Below, one piece after another: positions 1-13,605 of a stretch of 13,605 bases of DNA. The notes under the pieces are model-generated. The model worked only from the letters and a program-made list of their open reading frames with translations, was not told where the DNA came from and made no database searches. The DNA lies in the IMG/VR virus record IMGVR_UViG_2695420596_000001, positions 1-13,605 of that record, one strand, 5' to 3'. The position numbers were made by a program, and so were the translations under genes. Numbering within the stretch: the stretch's first letter is position 1; each line of letters begins with the position of its first letter. Source of the stretch: a virus (taxonomy: Duplodnaviria > Heunggongvirae > Uroviricota > Caudoviricetes).

Positions 1-221
1 ATTACGGTAACGACTGGCAGACGCTGGAGCTGGTGTTCACCGCCGGCAGTGCCACGGTTACTCCGAAACTGAATGGAGTGGCTGGCCCGGCATTCCAGGT
101 TATAAAAGACAGTCTGACACTGGGACTGAATGCGCTGACGCTGACGGATGTTACAAAAAATGCAGCGTATGGCGTTGAGATAGAAAGTCTGGTGCTGGAG
201 ATAAATGCACCGGCAGCATAA
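1..221 (+). CDS. 3' end of an upstream gene, 5'-truncated by the window edge; product unknown
   Basis: Frame 3 is open from the window edge to TAA at 219-221 (tail ...YGNDWQTLELVFTAGSATVTPKLNGVAGPAFQVIKDSLTLGLNALTLTDVTKNAAYGVEIESLVLEINAPAA). It is Cys-free and beta-strand-like. No family recognised; it does not resemble the C-terminus of lambda Q as I recall it. Confidence 0.4.
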   Translation, partial: YGNDWQTLELVFTAGSATVTPKLNGVAGPAFQVIKDSLTLGLNALTLTDVTKNAAYGVEIESLVLEINAPAA

Positions 222-222
222 T

Positions 223-263
223 AAAAAAAGAGCCAGCGACTGACCTGAAAGAAGACGCTGGCT
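223..263 (-). terminator. Hairpin with adjacent A7 tract (U7 on the minus strand): candidate minus-strand intrinsic terminator, copy 1
   Basis: Perfect 8 bp inverted repeat AGCCAGCG (231-238) / CGCTGGCT (256-263) with a 17 nt loop, preceded on + by AAAAAAA (223-229). It has terminator geometry only when read on the minus strand. Confidence 0.3.
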
Positions 264-370
264 AAAAGGCCTTATATGTTTGTAGAGACTTATTTTTCAC
301 AGACAGCAATGATGCCTGTCAATATATTATCAATATGCGGATTGTTTCAGTTACAGATGCTTTATTAAGG

Positions 371-413
371 AAAAAAACAGCCAGCACTGACTTTCGGTGG
401 AGAGGTGCTGGCT
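371..413 (-). terminator. Hairpin with adjacent A7 tract: candidate minus-strand intrinsic terminator, copy 2 (paralogous to 223-263)
   Basis: Inverted repeat CAGCCAGCAC (378-387) / GTGCTGGCT (405-413) with a 17 nt loop, preceded by AAAAAAA (371-377). Shares the GCCAGC(G)ACTGAC core with copy 1. Confidence 0.3.
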
Positions 414-483
414 CAGAAGGATAGTTGGATTTCACATGATACTTATGCCTGGCGGTATATTTTCTGACAGACAGTGACGGGTG

Positions 484-511
484 TTGTCAAGATATTGTGT
501 CATTTATAACC
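484..511 (+). promoter_or_regulatory. Candidate late promoter (pR'-like)
   Basis: TTGTCA (484-489) and TATAAC (505-510) with a 15 bp spacer, about 80 bp upstream of a strong terminator and about 160 bp upstream of the holin start. This is the position of pR'/qut in lambdoid late regions. Hexamers were picked by eye and the spacer is short. Confidence 0.25.
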
Positions 512-588
512 TGAATCAGGGGAGGCCGGAATGTTATCTGGCATTTTTAGCAGAGCCTGAATGCCATAATCACGGCTCCCGGAGTTGG

Positions 589-628
589 CCGTCAGTGGGT
601 GACACTGGCGGCTTTTTTGTTTTTCTTT
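589..628 (+). terminator. Rho-independent terminator (tR'-like) upstream of the holin
   Basis: 10 bp stem GCCGTCAGTG / CACTGGCGGC (one G-U pair), 5 nt loop GGTGA, followed by TTTTTTGTTTTTC. Confidence 0.55.
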
Positions 629-668
629 ACTTTCATTTTCTGTCGGCGGTGACGGAGACATACATCAG

Positions 669-875
669 ATGGAAAAAATCACAACAGGTGTGTCATACAC
701 CACGTCAGCGGTGGGGACGGGATACTGGTTACTGCAGCTGCTGGACAAAGTCTCTCCGTCCCAGTGGGTGGCAATAGGTGTGCTGGGAAGTCTGCTGTTT
801 GGCCTGCTGACGTATCTGACTAACCTGTATTTCAAAATCAGAGAGGACCGTCGTAAGGTGGCGCGGGGAGAGTAG
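669..875 (+). CDS. S: Class II holin (pinholin), phage 21 S-like, 68 aa
   Basis: Translation [68 protein letters not shown] closely parallels the S21 pinholin as I recall it (two TM helices, C-terminal ...[17 protein letters not shown]). SD-like GGAGAC lies 9 nt upstream of the ATG. Confidence 0.85.
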
Positions 876-1130
876 TCGATGAATAAACAATACGAACTGG
901 TTGTAAAATGAATATTTCTAACTGAAAAAACGTTCCATGAGGTAAGAAAAGGTCACAGGCAATCAATAACAGGACGTGATGAAAGACCCTTGCATTTGTG
1001 CGCTTTCTCTTTAGATAGCAGCAGATACTGAAAATCTGAGTTGTCGGGGAGTCAGGGATACAGCTGTGCAAGAGTTGGTCATTGTGATTCCATTGAAATC
1101 CTGTATGCCATGAAGGGCAGGATTTTATGG

Positions 1131-1445
1131 CTACCTGAGCTTTGGTGATAGTAAGTTGAAAATTCGCATTTTTTGCTGACATGCGTAACGAGAATCCCAT
1201 AAGCAGGGAGGACTTAATTCTTCATTAACCCATGCGTTGATATTATGTTTCAGCCGTTGAAGCATCAGCGGTGTTAATGTTGTGGTAATAATATCCAGCG
1301 TTTTATGTGAGATCTTACCGTAAGGGTCTGCAAGAATGCTGCTTGTTGCTTCGTTATTATCTGCCATCAGAAGAAGTAACTCTGATTTAACGTTTTCTGT
1401 CATTAGTTGTAAAAATCTTCTGCGCAAACTTTCTTTACTGTTCAT
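1131..1445 (-). CDS. Hypothetical protein (104 aa), opposite-strand cargo ORF inserted between holin and endolysin
   Basis: Intact minus-strand ORF (MNSKESLRRRFLQLMTENVKSELLLLMADNNEATSS...) in a visibly AT-rich ~690 bp segment that interrupts the otherwise contiguous S-R arrangement. A TATAAT-like hexamer sits upstream on the minus strand (around 1511-1518). The composition is helix-rich and protein-like; no family recognised. Confidence 0.4.
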   Translation of the reverse strand: MNSKESLRRRFLQLMTENVKSELLLLMADNNEATSSILADPYGKISHKTLDIITTTLTPLMLQRLKHNINAWVNEELSPPCLWDSRYACQQKMRIFNLLSPKLR

Positions 1446-1562
1446 TTATATGGCTTCATTTGTTGTAATCTGCTGCGTCTCAAGGGATATGTTTATGAGA
1501 GCGACCATGAGTGTTGGATTATATACCTAACATATCAAGGGATTAGAAATCGATAAATCCCC

Positions 1563-2096
1563 ATGCACGAAAAAATAAAATACGGCCTGTCGGCTGCCGT
1601 TCTGGCGCTGATTGGTGCAGGTGCTTCTGCGCCTGAAATCCTCGACCAGTTTCTGGATGAAAAGGAAGGTAACCACACCACGGCATACCGTGATGGTGCG
1701 GGGATCTGGACCATCTGCCGTGGTGCCATTCTGGTGGATGGTAAGCCTGTTATTCCTGGCATGAAGCTGTCAAAGGAAAAATGCGACCGGGTTAATGCCA
1801 TCGAACGTGACAAGGCGCTGGCATGGGTGGAGAAAAACATCCGGGTGCCGCTGACCGAACCCCAGAAAGCGGGGATCGCGTCATTCTGTCCGTACAACAT
1901 TGGCCCCGGTAAGTGCTTCCCGTCGACGTTTTATAAACGAATTAATGCAGGCGATCGAAAAGGTGCCTGTGAGGCGATTCGCTGGTGGATTAAGGACGGT
2001 GGCAGAGACTGCCGTATCCGTTCAAATAATTGCTACGGTCAGGTCTCACGGCGTGACCAGGAGAGCGCGCTGGCGTGCTGGGACATCGACAGATAG
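1563..2096 (+). CDS. R: Phage endolysin (lysozyme family, SAR-type N-terminus), 177 aa
   Basis: N-terminal weakly hydrophobic Gly/Ala-rich segment (KYGLSAAVLALIGAGASAP) followed by a lysozyme-like domain. It resembles the R21/RrrQ-type prophage endolysins of E. coli as recalled. A SAR endolysin is the expected partner of a pinholin. Confidence 0.88.
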   Translation: MHEKIKYGLSAAVLALIGAGASAPEILDQFLDEKEGNHTTAYRDGAGIWTICRGAILVDGKPVIPGMKLSKEKCDRVNAIERDKALAWVEKNIRVPLTEPQKAGIASFCPYNIGPGKCFPSTFYKRINAGDRKGACEAIRWWIKDGGRDCRIRSNNCYGQVSRRDQESALACWDIDR

Positions 2097-2185
2097 CAGA
2101 ATATTTTCCTGAAAAATGACGTTGGCCAACGCGGGTGGATAACACGAAATCCTGAAAACTGGTAAAACCTAAGTGAATAAAAGTA

Positions 2186-2226
2186 AAAACCCCGTTTGTT
2201 GGCAGCAAGCGGGGTTTTGTGTTTTC
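2186..2226. terminator. Bidirectional intrinsic terminator between endolysin and spanin genes
   Basis: Stem AAAACCCCG (2186-2194) / CGGGGTTTT (2210-2218) with loop TTTGTTGGCAGCAAG, flanked by an A-run upstream and TTTTGTGTTTT downstream. Confidence 0.55.
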
Positions 2227-2316
2227 TGACCTTGAGCAAGGCAAGGGAGAAATTATGGGTAGGGAGGTACTTTCCCTGTGAGGAAGTATAAAAGATTCTT
2301 TCTGAGGTTGTCCATT

Positions 2317-2430
2317 ATGAAAGGCATTGAAGTGGAGACGCCAGCCAGTCTGGATTTAACAAGAGCGGCAGCTTTTGCCATTCGTATTGTGGCCATTGCT
2401 GTTCTGGTCTGGGCAATCCGTTGGTGGTGA
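2317..2430 (+). CDS. Small ORF (37 aa) with a C-terminal hydrophobic helix, stop codon abutting the Rz start
   Basis: ATG at 2317 with GAGG 9 nt upstream; translation MKGIEVETPASLDLTRAAAFAIRIVAIAVLVWAIRWW; its TGA (2428-2430) is followed one base later by the Rz ATG (2432). Not in the ORF track because it is under 60 aa. Confidence 0.3.
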   Translation: MKGIEVETPASLDLTRAAAFAIRIVAIAVLVWAIRWW

Positions 2431-2431
2431 T

Positions 2432-2899
2432 ATGAACCGTGTTCTGTGCGTGGTTATCATTGTCCTGCTGGTGGCCTGTGGTGCGCTTAGTCTGGGGCTG
2501 AATCATTACCGTGATCACGCCATCATCTACAAAGAGCAGCGCGATAAAAAAGCCAGTGAGCTGGAGCTGGCGAACGCGACAATTACTGATATGCAGATAC
2601 GCCAGCGTGATGTCGCTGCACTTGATGCCAGATACTCGAGGGAATTAGCCGATGCGAGAGCTGAAAATGAAACTCTGCGTGCTGATGTTGCCGCTGGTCG
2701 TAAGCGCCTGCGGATCAACGCCACCTGCTCCGGTACCGTGCGTGAAGCCACCGGCACCTCCGGCGTGGATAATGCAACCGGCCCCCGACTGGCAGACACC
2801 GCTGAACGGGATTATTTCATCCTCAGAGAACGGCTGATGGCAATGCAGAAGCAACTGGAAGGAGCACAGGAATATATCCGTACCCAGTGTATACCGTGA
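2432..2899 (+). CDS. Rz: Rz inner-membrane spanin (i-spanin), 155 aa
   Basis: Translation from ATG 2432 (MNRVLCVVIIVLLVACGALSLGLNHYRDHAIIYKEQRDK...RDVAALDARY...TAERDYFILRERL...) is collinear with lambda Rz as recalled: N-terminal TM helix then coiled-coil periplasmic domain. Confidence 0.85.
   Translation: MNRVLCVVIIVLLVACGALSLGLNHYRDHAIIYKEQRDKKASELELANATITDMQIRQRDVAALDARYSRELADARAENETLRADVAAGRKRLRINATCSGTVREATGTSGVDNATGPRLADTAERDYFILRERLMAMQKQLEGAQEYIRTQCIP
2652..2837 (+). CDS. Rz1: Rz1 outer-membrane lipoprotein spanin (o-spanin), embedded in the +1 frame of Rz
   Basis: MRELKMKLCVLMLPLVVSACGSTPPAPVPCVKPPAPPAWIMQPAPDWQTPLNGII... has a lipobox (VSAC) and a proline-rich mature region nearly collinear with lambda Rz1; it lies wholly inside Rz in another frame. 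Confidence 0.8.
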   Translation: MRELKMKLCVLMLPLVVSACGSTPPAPVPCVKPPAPPAWIMQPAPDWQTPLNGIISSSENG

Positions 2900-3234
2900 T
2901 ATTTTGTTATGAAGGTGTTACTGGTAACGTTAAGGTAATTTAACAAAGAGTCAGTTCCGGACTTTATAGTGTGCTCAGTTCATGGCCAAAAACGATTTCT
3001 GTGATAAATATTTTGAATATTATTTACAGGTAAATGGAGTGGGGCACATGGATAGAAATATTACAATAGAGAATGAAGTATATGCCCGTATTGTATGGGC
3101 AGAGAAGGCAAAAACACGGTAATTCCGTGTGTTGCCATGATACCTGATTGGCAGAATAGTTGTTTGGTTTTGAGTATATAGTCAGCGTTTTTTGTTCAGT
3201 AATTGCTCCCTCAAAAAATAATAAAACAAGGTGA

Positions 3235-3345
3235 TTATTTTTGTTTATTATTTAGTTTTTTTGTGTGTTGTTTTATTGTTTTTGCGTGGTTTGTTTTTTA
3301 TTGTTATTTCATTAAGGGAAGGTAAATTCAGGATGGCAGTCTGTA
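3235..3345 (+). promoter_or_regulatory. T-tract-rich upstream region and candidate promoter for the PerC-like gene
   Basis: Successive T-tracts (TTGTTTT-type repeats) across 3237-3306, followed by TTGTTA (3301-3306), a 16 bp spacer and TAAATT (3323-3328), then GGAGG (3353-3357) and ATG 3364. Confidence 0.3.
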
Positions 3346-3363
3346 GATAATCGGAGGTCACTT

Positions 3364-3678
3364 ATGCTACATGATCACGTGGCAGAATGTCTGGAGAAAA
3401 AAGGACTGTACCGGAGAGCAGCTGAACGATGGGCAAAAGTGATGGTACAGCTAAGTGATGACCAGAAAAGAAAAGTGGCGGCACAGAAACGAGCAGAGTG
3501 TTTGCGTAAGGCGCGCCGGACTCCGGTTTCACCGGTGAACCTGACCGAAATAAAACAAGCGGTCAACAGACTACATTCTGAGTTGGGAATGGGATTTGAA
3601 GAGCGGCGGGTATTCCGACGATATAAAGGGACAGGAGAACAGAATACGTCCGGAAACGCGCGGTCAAAAAAATGCTAA
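3364..3678 (+). CDS. PerC-family-like small transcriptional regulator (104 aa), prophage cargo gene
   Basis: N-terminus MLHDHVAECLEKKGLYRRAAERWAKVMVQ matches the pattern I associate with the PerC/Pch family (AE.LE..G..RRAA.RW..V). Good SD (GGAGG, 6 nt spacer). Family call is from memory of the motif, not a search. Confidence 0.45.
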   Translation: MLHDHVAECLEKKGLYRRAAERWAKVMVQLSDDQKRKVAAQKRAECLRKARRTPVSPVNLTEIKQAVNRLHSELGMGFEERRVFRRYKGTGEQNTSGNARSKKC

Positions 3679-3714
3679 AAAATATCTGAGAGCGTTATTG
3701 CCTGTTACCATAAG

Positions 3715-3741
3715 AAAAAGCGACTTTAGTGGTCGCTTTTT
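3715..3741. terminator. Bidirectional intrinsic terminator shared by the convergent PerC-like and RHH genes
   Basis: AAAAA-GCGAC-TTTAGTG-GTCGC-TTTTT; the stem is flanked by an A-run on one side and a T-run on the other, between the convergent stops at 3678 and 3760. Confidence 0.5.
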
Positions 3742-3759
3742 GTGTCATATATAAGTCGT

Positions 3760-3984
3760 TTAAGTAAACCTGTCTGAACAGGTGCTCTGGTCGTGTTTGT
3801 CTTTGTTGGGTACAAATTGAGCATGTTTTTCATTAATTAATCTTCTTCTGCAGGCTTCAATAACCCACGCTGAAAAATTACCTGAACCTTTCTGATCAAG
3901 AGCGATGTTAATTTGTTCAATCATTTGGTTAGGAAAGCGGATGTTGCGGGTTGTTTTTCTGCGGGTTCTGTTCTTCGTTGACAT
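3760..3984 (-). CDS. Ribbon-helix-helix (Arc/Mnt/CopG-type) DNA-binding protein, 74 aa
   Basis: MSTKNRTRRKTTRNIRFPNQMIEQINIALDQKGSGNFSAWVIEACRRRL...: an Arg-rich N-terminal arm, then a beta-strand/helix/helix pattern (IRFP..E.I..A...G.S.NFS..V.EA) typical of Arc/Mnt-like repressors. Confidence 0.6.
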   Translation of the reverse strand: MSTKNRTRRKTTRNIRFPNQMIEQINIALDQKGSGNFSAWVIEACRRRLINEKHAQFVPNKDKHDQSTCSDRFT

Positions 3985-4153
3985 GAGGTTGCCCCGTATT
4001 CAGTGTCGCTGATTTGTATTGTCTGAAGTTGTTTTTACGTTAAGTTGATGCAGATCAATTAATACGATACCTGCGTCATAATTAATTATTTGACGTGGTT
4101 TGATGGCGTAGATGCACGTTGTGACATGTAGATGATAATTATTATCATTTTGC

Positions 4154-4180
4154 GGGTCCTTTCCGGCGATCCGACAGGTT
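4154..4180 (+). other. cosQ-like element (terminase nicking/termination accessory site)
   Basis: GGGTCCTTTCCGGCGATCCGACAGGTT immediately upstream of cosN is essentially the sequence I recall preceding the lambda right cohesive end. Confidence 0.55.
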
Positions 4181-4183
4181 ACG

Positions 4184-4195
4184 GGGCGGCGACCT
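4184..4195 (+). other. cosN: 12 nt cohesive-end sequence GGGCGGCGACCT
   Basis: Exact match to the canonical lambda cohesive end, and the following ~45 nt (CGCGGGTTTTCGCTATTTATGAAAATTTTCCGG) match the lambda left end as recalled. It sits about 185 bp upstream of the terminase small subunit gene. Confidence 0.85.
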
Positions 4196-4217
4196 CGCGG
4201 GTTTTCGCTATTTATGA

Positions 4218-4335
4218 AAATTTTCCGGGATCCATGTCCGGTTTCTCTTCAAGTTAACTATATGAAAAATATAAAAACAGGTCTTCTGTGAACCGGACAT
4301 GAACAAAAAACAGACATGTAAACCGGACATGACCG
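4218..4335 (+). repeat. cosB-like terminase small-subunit binding region: three copies of AACCGGACATG (one inverted, two direct) around an A/T-rich block
   Basis: Inverted copy at about 4220-4233 (CCATGTCCGGTTTC), direct copies at 4291-4302 and 4321-4332, with an A/T-rich segment (4240-4288) between the first and second. This R3-I1-R2-R1 architecture is classic for lambdoid cosB, but the repeat sequence is not the lambda one. Confidence 0.5.
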
Positions 4336-4378
4336 GTTTTGTTGTGATTGTGAGGTGAGAGTTTTTGCGAGGTGAGGA

Positions 4379-4888
4379 GTGGCTACGCAGACTGAAGTTG
4401 CCAGGCATTTAAGTCTGACCGATCGCCAGCTTCGCAGATTGCAGAAATTGCCGGGTGCCCCGATATCGAATAAGCGAGGGCAACTGGATCTGGATGCCTG
4501 GCGCGATTTTTACATATCGTATCTGAGGAGAAGTAAAAACGATGTGCCTGATGGCGATAGCGAAGACGACTATGAGGAGAAATTGCTTATTGCCAGATGG
4601 GAACTGACAGCAGAACAGGCTGTTACACAGCAGTTAAAAAATGAGGTGTCAAAAGGAAAACTTATTGACACCGGGTTCTGTATTTTTGCCCTCAGTAAGC
4701 TGGCAATGGCGTTATCCAGTACGCTTGATTCCATCCCTTTATCCATGCAGCGACAGTTTCCTGATTTAACACCGCGCCATCTTGACCATCTGAAAACCCT
4801 TATTGCTAAGGGGGCAAATCAGTGTGCGCGGGCAGGGGATAAATTACCGGATTTACTCGATGAATATATCAGAGCAACAACTGAATAA
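4379..4888 (+). CDS. nu1: Terminase small subunit (Nu1-like), 169 aa
   Basis: GTG start with AGGTGA SD. N-terminal HTH-like segment and C-terminal region (TGFCIFALSKLAMALSSTLDSIPLSMQRQFPDLTPRHLDHL...LPDLLDEYI) are collinear with lambda Nu1 as recalled. Overlaps the large subunit gene. Confidence 0.85.
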   Translation: MATQTEVARHLSLTDRQLRRLQKLPGAPISNKRGQLDLDAWRDFYISYLRRSKNDVPDGDSEDDYEEKLLIARWELTAEQAVTQQLKNEVSKGKLIDTGFCIFALSKLAMALSSTLDSIPLSMQRQFPDLTPRHLDHLKTLIAKGANQCARAGDKLPDLLDEYIRATTE

Positions 4889-6788
4889 TATGATGGCTGC
4901 CGTTTCGGTTGCGCTGCAGCCTCTGGTCAGGGTTGTACCAATGACGGCAGTTGAATGGGCTGATCAAAATTATTATCTGCCTAAAGAATCTTCATATGGT
5001 GAGGGAGAATGGAAAACGCTGCCATTCCAGATCGCCATTATGAACTGTATGGGTAACGACCAGGTTCGCACGGTTAACCTGATTAAATCTGCCCGTGTTG
5101 GCTATACAAAGATGTTGCTGGGGGTGGTCGGGTATTTTATTGAGCATAAATCCCGAAACAGTCTGCTTTTTCAGCCCACGGATTCTGCCGCTGAAGATTT
5201 TATGAAGTCTCACGTGGAGGCGACGATTCGGAACGTGCCATGCCTGAAAGACCTTTCCCCATGGCTGGGTCGTAAACATCGTGACAATACTCTCACGCTG
5301 AAACGCTTTTCATCGGGCGTCGGTTTCTGGTGCCTGGGCGGTGCAGCCGCCAAAAACTACCGTGAAAAATCCGTGGACGTGGTCTGCTATGACGAGCTTT
5401 CCTCGTTCGAGCCGGATGTCGAAAAAGAGGGCTCGCCAACCCTGCTGGGGGATAAGCGTATTGAGGGCTCTGTATGGCCAAAATCCATTCGCGGCTCGAC
5501 GCCTAAAATCAAAGGTACCTGCCAGATCGAAAAAGCGGCCAACGAGTCGGCGCATTTCATGCGTTTCTATGTGCCCTGCCCGCACTGTGGGGAGGCGCAG
5601 TATCTGAAATTTGGCGATGAATCCACGCCTTTTGGCCTTAAATGGGAGAAGGACAGCCCCGAAAGCGTTTTCTACCTCTGTGAACATCATGGCTGCGTGA
5701 TCCATCAGTCTGAGCTTGACCAGAGTAACGGGCGCTGGATCTGTGAAAACACGGGTATGTGGACCCGTGACGGCCTGATGTTTTTCAGCGCCCGGGGGGA
5801 TGAAATTCCGCCGCCGCGCTCCATCACGTTCCATATCTGGACGGCGTACAGTCCGTTCACCACCTGGATACAGATAGTCTATGACTGGCTGGATGCACTG
5901 AAAGATCCCAACGGCCTGAAAACCTTTGTGAACACCACGCTGGGCGAGACCTGGGAAGAGGCCGTGGGCGAAAAACTCGATCACCAGGTACTGATGGATA
6001 AGGTGGTGCGTTACACGGCGGCGGTGCCTGCCCGGGTGGTTTATCTGACGGCGGGCATTGACTCGCAGCGAAACCGTTTTGAGATGTATGTCTGGGGATG
6101 GGCACAGGGAGAGGAAGCCTTTCTGGTGGATAAAATCATCATTATGGGCCGTCCCGATGAGGAAGAGACGCTGTTACGTGTGGATGCGGCGATCAACAAA
6201 AAATACTGCCATGCAGACGGAACCGAAATGACCATTTCCCGTGTCTGCTGGGACACCGGGGGGATCGATGGTGAAATTGTCTATCAGAGGTCAAAAAAAC
6301 ACGGTGTTTTCCGGGTGCTGCCGGTAAAAGGCGCATCTGTCTATGGCAAGCCGGTGATCACCATGCCGAAAACCCGCAATCAGCGGGGCGTGTATCTGTG
6401 TGAAGTGGGGACGGACACCGCAAAAGAAATTCTCTATGCCCGTATGAAAGCCGATCCCACTCCTGCGGATGAAGCCACGTCGTATGCCATCCGTTTTCCT
6501 GATGATCCGGAGATTTTTTCGCAGACAGAGGCGCAGCAACTGGTCGCGGAAGAGCTTGTGGAGAAGTGGGAAAAAGGAAAGATGCGTCTGCTGTGGGATA
6601 ACAAAAAGCGGCGTAACGAAGCGCTGGACTGCCTGGTGTATGCCTACGCGGCATTACGTGTGTCCGTGCAACGCTGGCAGCTTGATCTGGCTGTACTGGC
6701 AAAATCCCGGGAAGAAGAGACGACCCGGCCAACCCTGAAAGAACTGGCAGCGAAGCTGTCCGGAGGAGTGAATGGTTACAGTCGCTGA
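4860..6788 (+). CDS. A: Terminase large subunit (gpA-like), about 642 aa from ATG 4860
   Basis: Strong collinearity with lambda gpA (AVEWADQNYYLPKES..., KSARVGYTKMLL..., GSVWPKSIRGSTPK..., TAYSPFTTW..., WDNKKRRNEALDC...). The ORF-track start at 4803 is an upstream in-frame alternative; MNISEQQ at 4860 matches the lambda A N-terminus MNISNSQ. Confidence 0.93.
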   Translation: MNISEQQLNNMMAAVSVALQPLVRVVPMTAVEWADQNYYLPKESSYGEGEWKTLPFQIAIMNCMGNDQVRTVNLIKSARVGYTKMLLGVVGYFIEHKSRNSLLFQPTDSAAEDFMKSHVEATIRNVPCLKDLSPWLGRKHRDNTLTLKRFSSGVGFWCLGGAAAKNYREKSVDVVCYDELSSFEPDVEKEGSPTLLGDKRIEGSVWPKSIRGSTPKIKGTCQIEKAANESAHFMRFYVPCPHCGEAQYLKFGDESTPFGLKWEKDSPESVFYLCEHHGCVIHQSELDQSNGRWICENTGMWTRDGLMFFSARGDEIPPPRSITFHIWTAYSPFTTWIQIVYDWLDALKDPNGLKTFVNTTLGETWEEAVGEKLDHQVLMDKVVRYTAAVPARVVYLTAGIDSQRNRFEMYVWGWAQGEEAFLVDKIIIMGRPDEEETLLRVDAAINKKYCHADGTEMTISRVCWDTGGIDGEIVYQRSKKHGVFRVLPVKGASVYGKPVITMPKTRNQRGVYLCEVGTDTAKEILYARMKADPTPADEATSYAIRFPDDPEIFSQTEAQQLVAEELVEKWEKGKMRLLWDNKKRRNEALDCLVYAYAALRVSVQRWQLDLAVLAKSREEETTRPTLKELAAKLSGGVNGYSR

Positions 6789-6978
6789 ACTACAGGCGCT
6801 ACGTCAGGCGCGCCTTGATTTATTAACCGGTAAACGGGTGGTGTCTGTCCAGAAAGATGGTCGCAGAATTGAATATACGGCGGCTTCTCTGGATGAGCTT
6901 AACCGGGCGATCAATGATGCGGAGTCGGTACTGGGGACAACCCGACGTCGCCGTCGTCCGCTGGGAGTGAGGTTATGA
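6772..6978 (+). CDS. W: Head-stabilisation / head-tail joining protein W-like, 68 aa
   Basis: LTGKRVVSVQKDGRRIEYTAASL...RRRRRP parallels lambda gpW ([23 protein letters not shown]...QRRRGP); same length; overlaps the terminase stop and the portal start (ATGA). Confidence 0.85.
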   Translation: MVTVAELQALRQARLDLLTGKRVVSVQKDGRRIEYTAASLDELNRAINDAESVLGTTRRRRRPLGVRL

Positions 6979-8672
6979 AACGAACGCCTGTCCTGATTGA
7001 TGTGAACGGCGTTCCGCTTCGTGAGAGTCTCAGCTACAACGGGGGCGGCGCAGGATTTGGCGGGCAAATGGCGGAGTGGTTGCCACCGGCGCAGAGTGCC
7101 GATGCAGCCCTGCTGCCTGCGTTGCGTCTGGGGAATGCCCGGGCAGATGATCTGGTGCGCAATAACGGGATAGCGGCCAATGCGGTGGCCCTGCATAAGG
7201 ATCATATTGTCGGGCATATGTTTCTGATCAGCTACCGTCCGAACTGGCGCTGGCTGGGGATGCGGGAGACTGCGGCAAAAAGTTTTGTCGATGAGGTGGA
7301 GGCGGCCTGGTCGGAATACGCCGAAGGGATGTCTGGCGAGATCGACGTGGAAGAGAAACGCACGTTTACGGAATTTATTCGTGAAGGTGTGGGCGTTCAT
7401 GCGTTTAACGGCGAAATCTTTGTGCAGCCGGTCTGGGATACGGAGAGCACGCAACTGTTTCGTACGCGTTTTAAAGCCGTGAGTCCGAAACGGGTGGACA
7501 CGCCAGGACACGGTATGGGGAACCGTTTTCTGCGGGCCGGGGTGGAGGTCGATCGATATGGCCGTGCCGTTGCGTACCATATCTGTGAGGATGATTTTCC
7601 GTTCTCTGGTAGTGGACGATGGGAACGGATCCCGCGTGAACTACCCACCGGGCGTCCGGCCATGCTGCATATTTTCGAGCCGGTGGAGGACGGGCAGACC
7701 CGTGGGGCTAATCAGTTTTACAGCGTCATGGAACGGCTGAAGATGCTGGATTCCCTGCAGGCAACACAGCTTCAGTCGGCCATTGTGAAAGCCATGTATG
7801 CAGCGACGATTGAAAGTGAACTTGATACCGAAAAGGCCTTTGAATATATCGCCGGTGCGCCGCAGGGGCAGAAGGATAATCCGCTTATTAATATTCTGGA
7901 TAAGTTCTCCACCTGGTATGACACGAATAACGTGACGCTGGGCGGTGTCAAAATTCCGCACCTTTTCCCCGGTGATGATCTGAAACTGCAGACTGCGCAG
8001 GATTCAGACAATGGATTTTCGGCGCTTGAACAGGCGCTGCTGCGGTATATCGCCGCCGGTCTTGGCGTTTCCTACGAACAGTTGTCCCGGGATTACTCGA
8101 AGGTCAGTTATTCAAGTGCCCGCGCCTCCGCCAATGAGTCGTGGCGCTATTTTATGGGACGACGAAAATTTATTGCGTCCCGGCTGGCCACGCAGATGTT
8201 TTCCTGCTGGCTGGAAGAGGCACTTCTTCGGGGGATTATTCGTCCGCCACGGGCGCGTTTTGATTTTTATCAGGCGCGATCAGCCTGGTCACGGGCTGAG
8301 TGGATTGGAGCCGGAAGAATGGCCATTGACGGGCTCAAGGAAGTCCAGGAATCAGTGATGCGCATTGAGGCCGGACTGAGCACGTATGAGAAAGAGCTGG
8401 CGCTGATGGGCGAGGATTATCAGGACATTTTCCGCCAGCAGGTCAGGGAATCTGCTGAGCGACAAAAAGCCGGACTCTCACGTCCGGTGTGGATAGCGCA
8501 GGCGTATGAGCAGCAGATAGCGGAGAGTCGCAGGCCGGTACCGGGGTTTCTCTTTAGCATGGCAGAAATGTGTTTCATGCTTTTCGGGCGAAGGATATCC
8601 GACTTCTGTACGGAATGGCAAGTGGCGGTTAATTTATTCAGGGGAAGGCTGTATGGGAAAAGGTGGCGGTAA
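6975..8672 (+). CDS. B: Portal protein (gpB-like), 565 aa, with a non-homologous C-terminal ~45 aa extension
   Basis: Collinear with lambda gpB across most of its length ([11 protein letters not shown]..., [13 protein letters not shown]..., [17 protein letters not shown]..., [13 protein letters not shown]..., STYEKE...). From roughly residue 520 the sequence (...[45 protein letters not shown]) has no counterpart in lambda B and runs into the J start. Confidence 0.85.
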
Positions 8673-11600
8673 GGCACACACGCCTCGTGAGGCGAAGGAT
8701 AATCTCAAATCCACGCAGATGATGAGTGTGATTGATGCGATTGGTGAGGGACCGATAGAAGGTCCGGTGAAGGGACTGCAGAGTATTCTGGTGAACAAAA
8801 CCCCACTGACGGACACGGACGGCAATCCCGTGATACACGGTGTGACGGCGGTCTGGCGCGCCGGGGAGCAGGAGCAGACACCACCGGAAGGCTTTGAGTC
8901 CTCCGGAGCTGAAACCGGACTGGGCGTGGAAGTGACGAAGGCAAAACCGGTGACGCGCACCATTACGTCCGCGAACATTGACCGCCTGCGGGTTACCTTC
9001 GGGGTGCAGTCACTGGTGCAGACCACGTCAAAGGGCGACCGTAATCCTTCCTCTGTCCGGATTCTGATTCAGTTACAGCGTAATGGCCGCTGGGTGACGG
9101 AAAAGGACGTCACCATTAACGGCAAGACCACCTCACAGTTCCTGGCCTCGGTGATTCTGGATAATCTGCCTCCCCGGCCCTTTAACATCCGGATGGTCAG
9201 GGAGACGGCGGACAGCACCACGGACCAGCTGCAGAATAAGACGCTGTGGTCGTCATACACCGAAATCATCGATGTGAAACAGTGCTACCCGAACACGGCC
9301 ATTGTGGGGCTGCAGGTGGATGCGGAGCAGTTCGGCGGCCAGCAGATGACGGTGAACTACCATATCCGCGGTCGCATCATCCAGGTACCGTCAAACTATG
9401 ACCCGGAAAAACGCACGTACAGCGGCATCTGGGACGGCAGCCTGAAACCGGCATACAGCAACAACCCGGCCTGGTGCCTGTGGGACATGCTGACTCACCC
9501 GCGCTACGGCATGGGAAAACGTCTGGTGGCGGCGGATGTTGACAAGTGGGCGCTGTATGCCATCGGGCAGTACTGCGACCAGACGGTCCCGGATGGTTTC
9601 GGGGGCACAGAGCCGCGGATGACCTTTAATGCGTACCTGTCACAACAGCGTAAGGCGTGGGACGTTCTCAGTGATTTCTGCTCGGCGATGCGCTGTATGC
9701 CGGTATGGAACGGCCAGACGCTGACGTTCGTTCAGGACCGCCCGTCGGATGTGGTGTGGCCGTACACCAACTGCGATGTGGTGGTGGATGATAACGGCGT
9801 GGGGTTTCGCTACAGCTTCAGCGCCCTGAAGGACCGCCACACGGCGGTGGAGGTGAATTACACCGACCCGCAGAACGGCTGGCAGACCTCCACGGAACTG
9901 GTGGAAGACCCGGAAGCCATACTGCGCTACGGGCGCAACCTGCTGAAGATGGATGCGTTCGGCTGCACCAGTCGCGGTCAGGCCCACCGTGCCGGGCTGT
10001 GGGTGATAAAGACCGGACTGCTGGAAACGCAGACGGTGGATTTCACGCTCGGGTCACAGGGGCTGCGTCACACACCCGGTGACATTATTGAAATCTGTGA
10101 TAACGACTATGCCGGGACCATGACCGGCGGACGTGTCCTGTCCATCGATGCCGCCAGCCGCACCCTGACGCTGGACCGTGAGGTGACACTGCCGGAGACC
10201 GGTGCCGCCACGGTGAACCTGATTAACGGCAGCGGTAAGCCGGTGAGTGTGGACATCACCGCACACCCCGCGCCGGACCGGATACAGGTCAGCACCCTGC
10301 CTGATGGTGTGGAGACATACGGTGTATGGGGACTCTCCCTGCCGTCACTGCGCCGTCGCCTGTTCCGCTGTGTCTCCGTCCGGGAAAACACGGACGGCAC
10401 CTTTGCCATCACGGCGGTGCAGCACGTACCGGAAAAAGAAGCCATCGTGGATAACGGTGCCCGCTTTGAGCCGCAGTCAGGCACCCTGAACAGCGTCATC
10501 CCTCCGGCAGTGCAGCACCTGACGGTGGAGGTGAGCGCAGCTGACGGCCAGTATCTGGCGCAGGTGAAATGGGACACGCCGCGGGTGGTGAAGGGCGTGC
10601 GCTTCAGTCTGCGCCTGACCAGTGGTAAGGGAACGGATGCCAGACTGGTGACCACCGCCATCACTGCGGATACAGAGCATCGTTTCAGTGGTCTGCCGCT
10701 CGGGGAATACACCCTGACAGTCAGGGCAATTAACAGTTATGGCCAGCAGGGGGAACCGGCCACCACCACGTTCAGGATTAATGCACCTGCGGTACCCGCC
10801 ACGATTGAGCTGACACCGGGCTATTTTCAGATAACAGCGGTCCCGCGTCTTGCCGTTTATGACCCGACGGTACAGTTTGAGTTCTGGTTCTCGGAAAAGC
10901 GGATTGCGGATATCAGGCAGGTTGAAACCGCAGCCCGCTATCTTGGCTCGGCGCTGTACTGGATAGCTGCCAGTATCAATATCAAACCGGGCCATGATTA
11001 TTATTTTTATATCCGCAGTGTGAATACTGTTGGCAAATCGGCATTCGTGGAGGCTGTCGGTCGGGCGAGCGATGATGCGGAAGGTTACCTGGATTTTTTC
11101 AAAGGAGAAATCGGGAAAACACATCTGGCCCAGGAGCTGTGGACGCAGATTGATAACGGTCAGCTTGCGCCGGACCTGGCTGAAATCAGGACGTCCATTA
11201 CGAATGTCAGCAATGAAATCACGCAGACCGTCAATAAAAAACTGGAAAATCAGAGTGCGGCAATCCAGCAGATACAGAAAGTTCAGGTTGATACAAATAA
11301 TAACCTGAACAGCATGTGGGCCGTGAAACTGCAGCAGATGCAGGACGGACGCCTTTATATTGCGGGTATCGGTGCCGGTATTGAGAATACGCCAGCAGGA
11401 ATGCAGAGTCAGGTGCTGCTGGCGGCAGACAGGATTGCGATGATTAATCCTGCGAATGGCAACACAAAGCCGATGTTTGTTGGTCAGGGCGATCAGATAT
11501 TTATGAATGAAGTGTTCCTGAAATATCTGACGGCTCCCACCATTACCAGCGGCGGTAATCCTCCGGCATTTTCCCTGACACCGGACGGGCGGCTGACGGC

Positions 11601-12126
11601 GAAAAATGCCGATATCAGCGGTAACGTGAATGCGAACTCCGGGACGCTCAACAACGTCACGATTAACGAGAACTGTCGGGTTCTGGGAAAATTGTCCGCG
11701 AACCAGATTGAAGGCGATCTCGTTAAAACAGTGGGCAAAGCTTTCCCCCGGGATTCCCGTGCACCGGAGCGGTGGCCATCAGGAACCATTACCGTCAGGG
11801 TTTATGACGATCAGCCGTTTGACCGGCAGATTGTTATTCCGGCGGTGGCATTCAGCGGCGCTAAACATGAGAAAGAGCATACTGATATTTACTCCTCATG
11901 CCGTCTGATAGTGCGGAAAAACGGTGCTGAAATTTATAACCGTACCGCGCTGGATAATACGCTGATTTACAGTGGTGTTATTGATATGCCTGCCGGTCAC
12001 GGTCACATGACACTGGAGTTTTCGGTGTCAGCATGGCTGGTAAATAACTGGTATCCCACAGCAAGTATCAGCGATTTGCTGGTTGTGGTGATGAAGAAAG
12101 CCACTGCAGGCATCACGATTAGCTGA
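8653..12126 (+). CDS. J: Tail tip / host-specificity protein J, 1157 aa
   Basis: Collinear with lambda gpJ from the N-terminus ([22 protein letters not shown]...) through the FN3-like region and conserved block ([40 protein letters not shown]). It diverges in a central segment and in the C-terminal receptor-binding region. Confidence 0.95.
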
Positions 12127-12144
12127 ATTTTATAACCCAGATAC

Positions 12145-12172
12145 GGGCGCCAGAAATGGCGCCTTTTTTATT
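12145..12172 (+). terminator. Intrinsic terminator downstream of J
   Basis: GGCGCCA-GAAA-TGGCGCC stem-loop followed by TTTTTTATT. Confidence 0.55.
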
Positions 12173-12193
12173 GCAGAAAAGCGAGAGGTAATT

Positions 12194-12793
12194 ATGCGTA
12201 AATTATGTGCTGTTATTTTGTCCGCAGTAGTCTGGCAGGTCGCCGCTGCTACGCCAGCGAGTGCAGCAGAACATCAGTCCACGCTGAGCGCGGGGTATCT
12301 CCATGCCTCGACGAACGTTCCCGGTAGTGATGATCTGAACGGGATTAACGTGAAATACCGTTATGAGTTTACGGACGCGCTGGGGCTGATTACGTCCTTC
12401 AGTTATGCCAATGCTGAGGATGAGCAAAAAACGCGCTACAGCGATACCCGCTGGCATGAAGATTCCGTGCGTAACCGCTGGTTCAGCGTGATGGCGGGGC
12501 CGTCTGTACGCGTGAATGAATGGTTCAGCGCGTATGCGATGGTGGGTGTGGCTTACAGCCGTGTGTCGACTTTCTCCGGGGATTATCTCCGCGTAACTGA
12601 CAACAAGGGGAAAACGCACGATGTGCTGACCGGAAGTGATGACGGTCGCCACAGCAACACGTCTCTGGCGTGGGGGGCTGGCGTGCAGTTTAACCCGACC
12701 GAATCCGTGACCATTGACCTTGCTTATGAAGGTTCCGGTAGTGGCGACTGGCGAACGGATGCATTTATTGTTGGTATCGGATACCGTTTCTGA
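12194..12793 (+). CDS. lom: Lom-like outer membrane protein (Ail/Lom family beta-barrel), 199 aa
   Basis: Signal peptide (MRKLCAVILSAVVWQVAAATPASA) and C-terminal ...AYEGSGSGDWRTDAFIVGIGYRF matching lambda Lom; conserved GINVKYRYE motif; position immediately after J as in lambda. Confidence 0.9.
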   Translation: MRKLCAVILSAVVWQVAAATPASAAEHQSTLSAGYLHASTNVPGSDDLNGINVKYRYEFTDALGLITSFSYANAEDEQKTRYSDTRWHEDSVRNRWFSVMAGPSVRVNEWFSAYAMVGVAYSRVSTFSGDYLRVTDNKGKTHDVLTGSDDGRHSNTSLAWGAGVQFNPTESVTIDLAYEGSGSGDWRTDAFIVGIGYRF

Positions 12794-12896
12794 CAACAGA
12801 CGCCGATTTATCTTCTGTAAATATTGTTATGATACGCAGGTTCATCCACCTTATGGGGTGAACTGCGTTTGAGGAAACGTAAAGTTACACTGTCCT

Positions 12897-12932
12897 GAAG
12901 CCCGTGGCGTCACTGCTGCGGGCTTTTTTTTA
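12897..12932 (+). terminator. Intrinsic terminator downstream of lom
   Basis: AAGCCCG ... CGGGCTT stem followed by a T8 run. Confidence 0.5.
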
Positions 12933-12945
12933 TTGGTGGAAAAGT

Positions 12946-13605
12946 ATGACAGTAAAAATTTCTGGCGTGCTTAAAGACGGCACAGGAAAACCGGTAGAGA
13001 ACTGCACCATTCAACTGAAAGCCAGACGGACCAGCAGCACGGTGGTGGTGAACACGGTGGCCTCTGAAAATCCGGATGAAGCCGGTCGTTACAGCATGGA
13101 CGTTGAGTACGGTCAGTACAGCGTCATTCTGTTGGTGGAGGGCTTCCCGCCGTCACATGCCGGGACCATCACCGTTTATGAAGATTCTCAACCCGGTACG
13201 CTGAATGATTTTCTCGGTGCCATGTCGGAGGATGACGTCCGGCCGGAGGCACTGCGCCGTTTTGAACTGATGGTGGAAGAGGTGGCGCGTCACGCTGAGG
13301 AGGCGAAGAAGAATGCCGGAGAGGCGGAGACGTCAGCGAGGAATGCCGGCATATCAGCCAGTCAGGCAGAAGAGAGCGCTGCAAATGCTGACACTTCAGC
13401 AGGGGAGGCATCGGAGTCAGCCCGGCAGGCGGCAGAAAGTGCAGCCTCAGCAAAGCAGTCAGAGGATGCGTCCTCGTCCTCGGCTTCTGCGGCCGCTCAA
13501 AAAGCCAGTGAGTCATCACAAAGTGCAGCAGAAGCTGAATTGTCAAGAAAGACGGCAGAAAGTGCAGCCGGTAATGCAGCCAGGGATGCAACGACCGCAA
13601 CAGAA
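12946..13605 (+). CDS. stf: Side tail fibre protein Stf, N-terminal 220 codons (3'-truncated by the window edge)
   Basis: MTVKISGVLKDGTGKPVENCTIQLKARRTSSTVVVNTVASENPDEAGRYSMDVEYGQYSVILLVEGFPPSHAGTITVYEDSQPGTLNDFL... is near-identical in pattern to the lambda Stf N-terminus, followed by the Ala/Ser/Glu-rich repeat region. GGTGGA SD. The frame is open to the window end. Confidence 0.9.
   Translation, partial: MTVKISGVLKDGTGKPVENCTIQLKARRTSSTVVVNTVASENPDEAGRYSMDVEYGQYSVILLVEGFPPSHAGTITVYEDSQPGTLNDFLGAMSEDDVRPEALRRFELMVEEVARHAEEAKKNAGEAETSARNAGISASQAEESAANADTSAGEASESARQAAESAASAKQSEDASSSSASAAAQKASESSQSAAEAELSRKTAESAAGNAARDATTATE

Follow-up and report, generated by a model that had tools for sequence, protein, structure and literature searches.

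A pchA cargo gene beside the conserved ylcI gene in the Rz-to-cos interval of a defective lambda-like prophage

Two convergent genes lie between the lysis genes and the cohesive-end site of a lambda-like prophage, and the question raised by this arrangement is whether they form one regulatory module or simply stand side by side. The prophage is contained in the viral record IMGVR_UViG_2695420596_000001 (Caudoviricetes), of which positions 1 to 13,605 (the window) were analysed. An earlier note, made from the letters of this stretch, had read the region 2900-4150 as holding a PerC-like activator and a small ribbon-helix-helix (RHH) protein, which together could be a host-directed cargo module. 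We find that the first gene is pchA, already known and annotated, and that the second belongs to the DUF3950 (YlcI/YnfO) family; it is very probable that pchA is cargo and ylcI a part of the lambda-family backbone, and that the two are neighbours and not a new regulatory module. The window is the late region of a lambda-like prophage, in which the region 2900-4150 would represent a variable Rz-to-cos cargo slot and, beyond it, the conserved part of the backbone that adjoins cos, with the following features:

2375-2899, + strand: Rz spanin gene (Pfam Phage_lysis, E 1.2e-48), left border of the cargo slot.
2878-3836: cargo ('moron') segment, with no lambda homology by blastn, containing the pchA locus and the 3' tail of ylcI.
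3140-3340, + strand: AT-rich DNA 5' of pchA (27-31% GC), presumed promoter or regulatory DNA.
3364-3678, + strand: pchA, a group 1 Pch of the PerC family, 104 amino acids (Pfam PerC, PF06069), with GGAGG at 3353-3357, six bases 5' of its ATG.
3715-3741, both strands: symmetrical hairpin A5-GCGAC-7 nucleotides (nt)-GTCGC-T5 (inverted repeat I9), likely a bidirectional intrinsic terminator.
3760-3984, - strand: gene of the ylcI/ynfO family, 74 amino acids (Pfam DUF3950, NCBIfam YlcI_YnfO_N); codons 1-49 (3837-3984) are its conserved domain and codons 50-74 (3760-3836) a cargo-encoded tail.
3985-4083: invariant non-coding block of 99 nt, 5' of ylcI.
4184-4195, + strand: cosN, GGGCGGCGACCT, an exact match to the lambda cohesive end and the right border of the region.

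The two open reading frames (ORFs) described in the earlier note are real and convergent, each starting with ATG, and they lie between Rz and cosN in the interval where lambda carries bor, p78 and p79; the E-values of their hidden Markov model (HMM) matches, 3.8e-44 for PerC and 7.6e-20 for DUF3950, are both far past chance. The PerC assignment of the earlier note was borne out by the HMM search (149.3 bits against a cut-off of 22.6, with residues 1-89 aligned to positions 1-89 of the 90 in the profile) and can be made more specific: the protein is identical to PchA (ECs_1091) of prophage Sp4 in E. coli O157:H7 Sakai in 104 of 104 residues, and its gene in 315 of 315 nucleotides. The gene is pchA itself, and nothing was found that contradicts this identification. 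In UniRef the exact sequence bears the name 'PchABC family transcriptional regulator', and it occurs on at least 1000 public contigs. The likeness to Sakai extends to the surroundings: in both cases pchA lies directly 3' of Rz in a lambda-like prophage, the AT-rich upstream DNA is common to both, and identity is 99.7% over window positions 348-3841. The locus studied here is uninterrupted (Rz-pchA-ylcI-cos-terminase), with holin, lysozyme and Rz/Rz1 on one side of pchA and cos, the small (TerS) and large (TerL) terminase subunits and the portal gene on the other, whereas in Sp4 an IS629 element is present and ylcI is broken by an inversion. The pch coding region was found in 673 of 5426 complete E. 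coli genomes, at 1877 places and with a median of three copies, and 687 of the 688 records with it show an identity of 99% or more; the trio 'PerC family transcriptional regulator', 'YlcI/YnfO family protein' and 'terminase small subunit' is annotated by the NCBI pipeline in hundreds of genomes.

The identical protein has been well studied as an activator of the virulence island for attaching and effacing (LEE) in pathogenic E. coli. The genes pchA, pchB and pchC of enterohaemorrhagic E. coli O157:H7 are three group 1 PerC homologues carried on lambdoid prophages, and full expression of ler and the LEE depends on them (PMC4456613, PMC6265319); in the passage of PMC6265319 that cites Iyoda and Watanabe (2004), the group 1 genes are given as needed for full expression of ler and espA and for adherence. 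In K-12, PchA raised the activity of a ler::lacZ fusion from 1577 to 9087 Miller units (PMC5931665), and plasmid-borne PchA alone activated LEE1; binding of Pch at the LEE1 promoter region cuts the occupancy of H-NS and StpA, and silencing is thereby relieved (PMC4764244). In published work the identical protein binds AT-rich DNA at LEE1 and other sites and loosens the H-NS/StpA/Hha complex, which turns on ler and the regulon of the type III secretion system (T3SS). For the strain from which the window derives, the same activation of LEE1 and ler by countering H-NS is predicted. PerC, encoded in the perABC operon of plasmid pEAF of enteropathogenic E. coli, belongs to the same Pfam family, and both PerC and Pch activate the LEE1/ler promoter (PMC4456613, PMC5931665); PerC is plasmid-borne in the per operon, whereas the gene described here is prophage cargo. 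Residues 7-47 of PchA also give a sub-threshold match, which may be due to chance, to the ANR (AraC negative regulator) model NF033650 (E 0.046).

With respect to its own expression, pchA is known to be read from a promoter of its own, which is here presumed to lie in the AT-rich upstream DNA, where the composition scan reaches its GC minimum (0.267 at 3200-3349). When the locus is compared with the paralogous pchB/C-type locus from the O157:H7 EDL933 background, the interval 3189-3320 accounts for 35 of the 39 differences, with flanks and coding region near-identical; the sole coding difference is at nucleotide 16 of pch, one of three positions reported to distinguish the A, B and C alleles (PMC5931665). 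The packing of the differences into these 130 nt means that the pch paralogues diverge mainly in regulatory DNA, which is consistent with their reported differential regulation. Lrp, together with butyrate, and LrhA control the native pchA promoter (PMC7279287, PMC4456613). Since pchA lies on the late-operon strand directly after Rz, we infer in addition that transcription from the late promoter would read through from Rz into pchA on induction; the rise of group 1 pch transcripts after treatment with SOS-inducing drugs (PMC5931665) agrees with this position.

The limits of the cargo were drawn by blastn comparison of the window with lambda. The match over Rz covers 2495-2877 at 83% identity, homology resumes over 3837-4228 at 93.9%, and there is nothing between; the exchangeable segment is therefore 2878-3836. 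The same interval contains cspI to gnsB, plus ydfO, in the Qin prophage of K-12, and iss in strain 204446. Like bor of lambda and iss of 204446, pchA is a gene of this interval that serves host fitness and has expression signals of its own; unlike those two minus-strand lipoprotein genes, it lies on the strand of the late operon and its product is a regulator. The right-hand junction of the cargo is codon 49 of ylcI, and therefore pchA travels with only the C-terminal tail of YlcI, 25 residues, and with the hairpin that the two genes share. Each type of cargo would in this way give YlcI a different C-terminal tail. The position of the junction accounts for the pattern seen in an alignment of 34 family members, in which residues 1-49 are near-invariant and the tails unrelated, and the slot boundary inside ylcI explains the many C-terminal variants of YlcI.

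The remainder of ylcI is backbone. The 74-residue protein matches Pfam DUF3950 (PF13132, 70.9 bits against a cut-off of 25), NCBIfam YlcI_YnfO_N (NF041551, 34.8 bits against a cut-off of 30) and phrog_949 (E 2.1e-31), and 47 of its first 49 residues are identical to those of a copy in lambda. This lambda copy, an intact protein of 64 residues, is encoded at the corresponding site on the minus strand (2441-2635 of our lambda record L001), some 200-395 nt before the right end, and is absent from the annotation of NC_001416. YlcI of DLP12, YnfO of Qin and the lambda ORF share the DUF3950 family and a minus-strand site, divergent from the small-terminase gene, whereas the tail found here (residues 50-74) is unrelated to theirs, being encoded by the pchA cargo segment; the K-12 genes ynfO and ylcI adjoin nohA and nohD, and the slot there holds other cargo. 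In the window, as in lambda, Qin and strain 204446, 200 nt separate the start codon of ylcI from cosN, and a minus-strand gene of this family precedes the packaging module in the window, lambda/DE3, Qin, 204446 and strain R7, where that module is of the HNH/TerS type. The YlcI domain is present at 9740 places in 4169 of the 5426 genomes, six times as many genomes as carry pch, and only 110 relatives were recovered when 1.8 billion cluster representatives were searched exhaustively; among them, homologues at 34-57% identity retain the same pattern. Codons 1-49 of the window differ from those of lambda by 11 synonymous and 3 non-synonymous changes, and from those of R7 by 18.5 and 6.5; the ratio of non-synonymous to synonymous divergence (pN/pS) is 0.06-0.10 at pS 0.34-0.69. 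By this measure ylcI is a real gene under strong purifying selection. A literature search for YlcI, YnfO and DUF3950 returned no functional study.

The stop codons of the two genes flank a perfect inverted repeat, AAAAAGCGAC-7 nt-GTCGCTTTTT, with arms of 10 nt that are 100% complementary (3715-3741). It folds on both strands, with free energies of -14.7 and -12.3 kcal/mol (z -2.6 and -2.8), and is missing from the output of a consensus terminator scan of the region, an omission probably explained by the pairing of its A and T runs within the stem. Of the shared bidirectional terminator proposed in the earlier note, the symmetrical hairpin between the stops is thus present on both strands, and termination is what its appearance makes likely; the hairpin would insulate the convergent pchA and ylcI transcripts from each other.

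These results can be set against other explanations of the locus. In one, the 74-residue ORF is no functional gene and its conservation reflects constrained DNA flanking cos: the adjoining 99 non-coding nucleotides are indeed more conserved than the ORF, which is unannotated in the lambda reference, has a weak Shine-Dalgarno sequence (GGGG) and has no consensus promoter in a scan of the region on the minus strand. This explanation is exceedingly improbable, given the excess of synonymous (11-23) over non-synonymous (3-6.5) changes, the retention of the hydrophobic pattern and of an NFSAWV motif in homologues down to 34% identity, the R7 copy beside a different packaging module with unrelated flanks, and the transcription of ylcI in K-12 (PMC12288877). 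According to another, PchA and an RHH-like protein form a two-gene cargo module, in which YlcI might repress pchA or tune its regulon, the two genes being passed on and used as a pair. The adjacency of the genes, their convergence on a common hairpin, the occurrence of the whole 2900-4400 arrangement in 660 genomes at a coverage of at least 80%, and the fact that the tail variant of 74 residues is encoded on the same cargo segment as pchA all speak for such a module. We consider it very unlikely nonetheless, because the YlcI domain occurs without pch in lambda, DLP12 and Qin, is found in 4169 genomes against 673 for pch, and lies outside the cargo, in lambda-homologous DNA; the host-directed module of the earlier note is not supported. 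PchA also activates LEE1 in K-12 from a plasmid by itself (PMC4764244), and prophage Sp4 of Sakai offers a natural disruption: there the segment from holin to pchA is inverted, 107 bp are missing and 12 ylcI codons remain beside cos, and the Sp4 pchA allele, identical to that of the window, still turned on ler after cloning and expression in K-12 (PMC5931665). The destroyed ylcI and the active allele together exclude a need for ylcI in cis only.

A third explanation takes the proteins to be functionally unrelated and the genes to be coupled by convergent transcription (an 'excludon'), the ylcI transcript acting as antisense to pchA or the reverse. Transcripts of the equivalent K-12 pair, ybcW and ylcI, do overlap convergently in RNA-seq data (PMC12288877), and the hairpin at 3715-3741 has only five pairs that contain G or C, the others being A:U. 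A second hairpin at about 3107-3137, 5' of pchA (-15.1 and -16.7 kcal/mol, z -3.4 and -3.1), has a T run on the minus strand only and could halt antisense transcription arriving through pchA. On the other side, the hairpin between the genes is perfect, symmetrical and terminator-like on both strands, and published accounts of pchA regulation invoke Lrp, LrhA and further factors but no antisense RNA (PMC4456613); on our analysis this coupling is unlikely. We therefore retain the reading of pchA as cargo and ylcI as backbone. Two points count against it: other copies of ylcI in the same genome could act in trans, and both the read-through into pchA and the termination at the hairpin are drawn from position and sequence only.

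Whether YlcI is an RHH protein, as the earlier note had called it, is a separate matter. The Arg-rich arm that it had described is present, MSTKNRTRRKTTRN having 4 Arg and 2 Lys in 13 residues; the HMM check gave no match to a Pfam RHH family, and what remains of the call is a profile alignment in the register of Arc and Mnt and a strand-helix-helix arrangement predicted by AlphaFold2 (AF2). In the hhalign comparison of the YlcI family alignment (A3) with Arc and Mnt, whose sequences were verified against PDB entries 1arq and 1mnt, the score was 19.0 over 34 columns, in register, a value reached by none of 300 column-shuffled profiles (mean 8.5, standard deviation 2.0, maximum 17.9). The alignment puts NIRFP on NLRWP in the strand and continues over helix A, a G-x-S/N turn and helix B. 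YlcI resembles Arc and Mnt of P22 in its size, its basic arm, its N-[IL]-R-[FW]-P strand motif and the succession of helix A, turn and helix B, although the similarity is below family-level significance, and Arc and Mnt lie in the immI region and control ant whereas the gene for YlcI adjoins cos. Against an unverified CopG sequence, the E-value was 0.11. When AF2 was given a diverse alignment, it predicted strands at 10-12 and 15-17, the latter immediately before helix A, and helices at 19-31 and 39-55. There is also a weak match (E 0.0088) to a PHROG of HicB-like antitoxins, which we take to end in an RHH domain.

Several results weigh against the RHH assignment. The Pfam RHH families had no match at E <= 10 across 34 + 17 members of the YlcI family; queries of the PDB sequences with the single sequence and with the profile returned chance matches only; the hhalign probability of the Arc/Mnt alignment is 18%; and the confidence of AF2 was moderate in both models (mean predicted local distance difference test score 64-69). 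YlcI may instead be a real small DNA- or protein-binding protein of another fold, perhaps a helical hairpin with a disordered basic arm, as is suggested by the AF2 model built from close homologues only, in which there are two helices and a loose N-terminus. A Foldseek search of the YlcI model against PDB and BFVD also gave only matches with E > 2. However, RHH strands pair only in the dimer, the AF2 models are of the monomer, and the fold search probably failed because a monomer model of an obligate-dimer fold is too small and incomplete. Taken with the alignment over strand, helix A, turn and helix B, which outscored all 300 shuffles, this leaves a non-RHH fold as a possible but less probable alternative. 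We consider the RHH fold of YlcI probable, at about two in three: the 49-residue domain is predicted to be most likely an RHH DNA-binding dimer with a basic N-terminal arm. YlcI is best filed under DUF3950/YlcI-YnfO, and the resemblance to Arc and Mnt is a lead.

A conserved non-coding block lies between ylcI and cosN. Positions 3985-4083 are 100% identical in the window, lambda, Qin and strain 204446 (alignment A4) and 97-100% identical in 71 lambda-type phage records, whereas the adjacent ylcI codons are much more diverged, with a third of the synonymous sites differing. A check of 3985-4083 for RNA structure gave no signal, and the DNA upstream of the R7 copy, by its HNH/TerS module, is unrelated to the block. 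Our best guess is that YlcI would serve as a regulator or autoregulator in the lysogen, through the conserved DNA that separates its gene from cos. The fuller proposal, that YlcI is an overlooked RHH DNA-binding protein of lambda which acts on the near-invariant ylcI-cosN DNA and might set the expression of the cargo, is a speculation that we rate as quite unlikely. If true, YlcI might control the use of the packaging site or transcription across cos in the lysogen, and convergent ylcI transcription might set the expression of the Rz-cos cargo, here pchA. The best sigma-70-like match of the region, GTGACA-16 nt-TATCAT, lies on the + strand at 4121-4148 (10 of 12 positions), in the conserved DNA directly before cos, points toward the terminase genes and is near-identical in lambda.

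The DUF3950 domain also occurs in integrase-primase satellites (L008 3590-4363, L009-L012), once by itself as a protein of 60 residues and once in a fusion whose partner is the N-terminal helix-turn-helix of a Terminase_2 small subunit (P0258, P0231); the fusion of DUF3950 to a small-terminase helix-turn-helix hints at a link between YlcI and packaging. A comparison of this fusion with Rpp, by which satellites redirect the packaging of their helper phage, matched no solved Rpp chain, only small-terminase DNA-binding domains. In L008 the satellite appears to be inserted in the small-terminase gene of a prophage of the HNH type, which carries a YlcI copy of its own. Frameshifted YlcI homologues are found on dozens of contigs of about 3.5 kb, some of them under the names of unrelated species; these contigs look like the nanopore control amplicon of the lambda right end and inflate the apparent diversity of the family. 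The idea of YlcI as an RHH antitoxin of a toxin-antitoxin pair was rejected, as no conserved neighbouring partner is found in the window, lambda, Qin, 204446 or R7.

The other features of the window, on both sides of the slot, are these:

669-875: P21-type holin gene (Pfam), late region.
1563-2096: lysozyme gene (Pfam), late region.
2652-2837: Rz1, embedded within Rz (Pfam Rz1, E 1.7e-21).
2982-3122, + strand: ORF of 46 amino acids (phrog_2157, E 2.7e-37, function unassigned), doubtful as coding sequence.
4233-4331: cosB-like repeats CATGTCCGGTT, putative sites for the small terminase.
4379-4888: Nu1-type small-terminase gene (Pfam Phage_Nu1).
3' of the small-terminase gene: large terminase, portal, J and lom, the remainder of the late region.

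Past cosN the homology to lambda ends at 4228. Beyond it CATGTCCGGTT occurs three times (4233-4243, 4291-4301 and 4320-4331; repeat families D1, I5 and I7), once in one orientation and twice in the other, and TerS matches Phage_Nu1 only from residue 49, its first 48 residues being unmatched. The repeats and TerS are probably a cosB/TerS pair of a specificity unlike that of lambda, in which the repeats would be the sites bound. Further along, similarity to intact relatives breaks off inside the portal gene, at 8538, and J, the gene for the tail tip, begins at 8653; the genes for the head and the tail shaft are missing from the prophage, which is therefore incapable of making particles and is defective. 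The portal/J junction (8538-8653) has an exact match in none of the complete E. coli genomes of the collection, and a full-length match to the whole window was found in 0 of 5426.

Within the slot, the gap of 465 nt between Rz and pchA is not explained by a known small RNA, as an Rfam scan of 2500-4600 at E <= 1 returned no RNA family. The ORF of 46 residues that lies in this gap, just before the hairpin at about 3107-3137, has no Pfam or NCBIfam match and is unannotated by the NCBI annotation pipeline (PGAP) in O157:H7; it differs from the paralogous locus at two positions, and as both substitutions are non-synonymous it was not counted as a gene. On the minus strand, opposite the lysis genes and between holin and lysozyme, an ORF at 1131-1445 has 104 amino acids by ORF scan, while the annotation of relatives gives a hypothetical protein of 90 residues (a coding sequence of 273 nt); it matches phrog_1853 (function unassigned) and has no Pfam or PADLOC match. 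PADLOC gave no defence-system model for PchA, YlcI, the 46-residue ORF or this minus-strand ORF.

As for what these results mean, the identification of pchA is annotation, useful for strain typing, and not new biology, and neither the facts about the YlcI family nor the slot boundary alters the understanding of Pch regulation. What they add concerns ylcI: a DUF3950/YlcI protein, probably of the RHH type and by its substitution pattern under strong purifying selection, is encoded by lambda and by roughly three in four of the complete E. coli genomes. The window itself shows a defective prophage that carries an intact pchA, a gene that helps to decide the expression of the T3SS in attaching-and-effacing E. 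coli.

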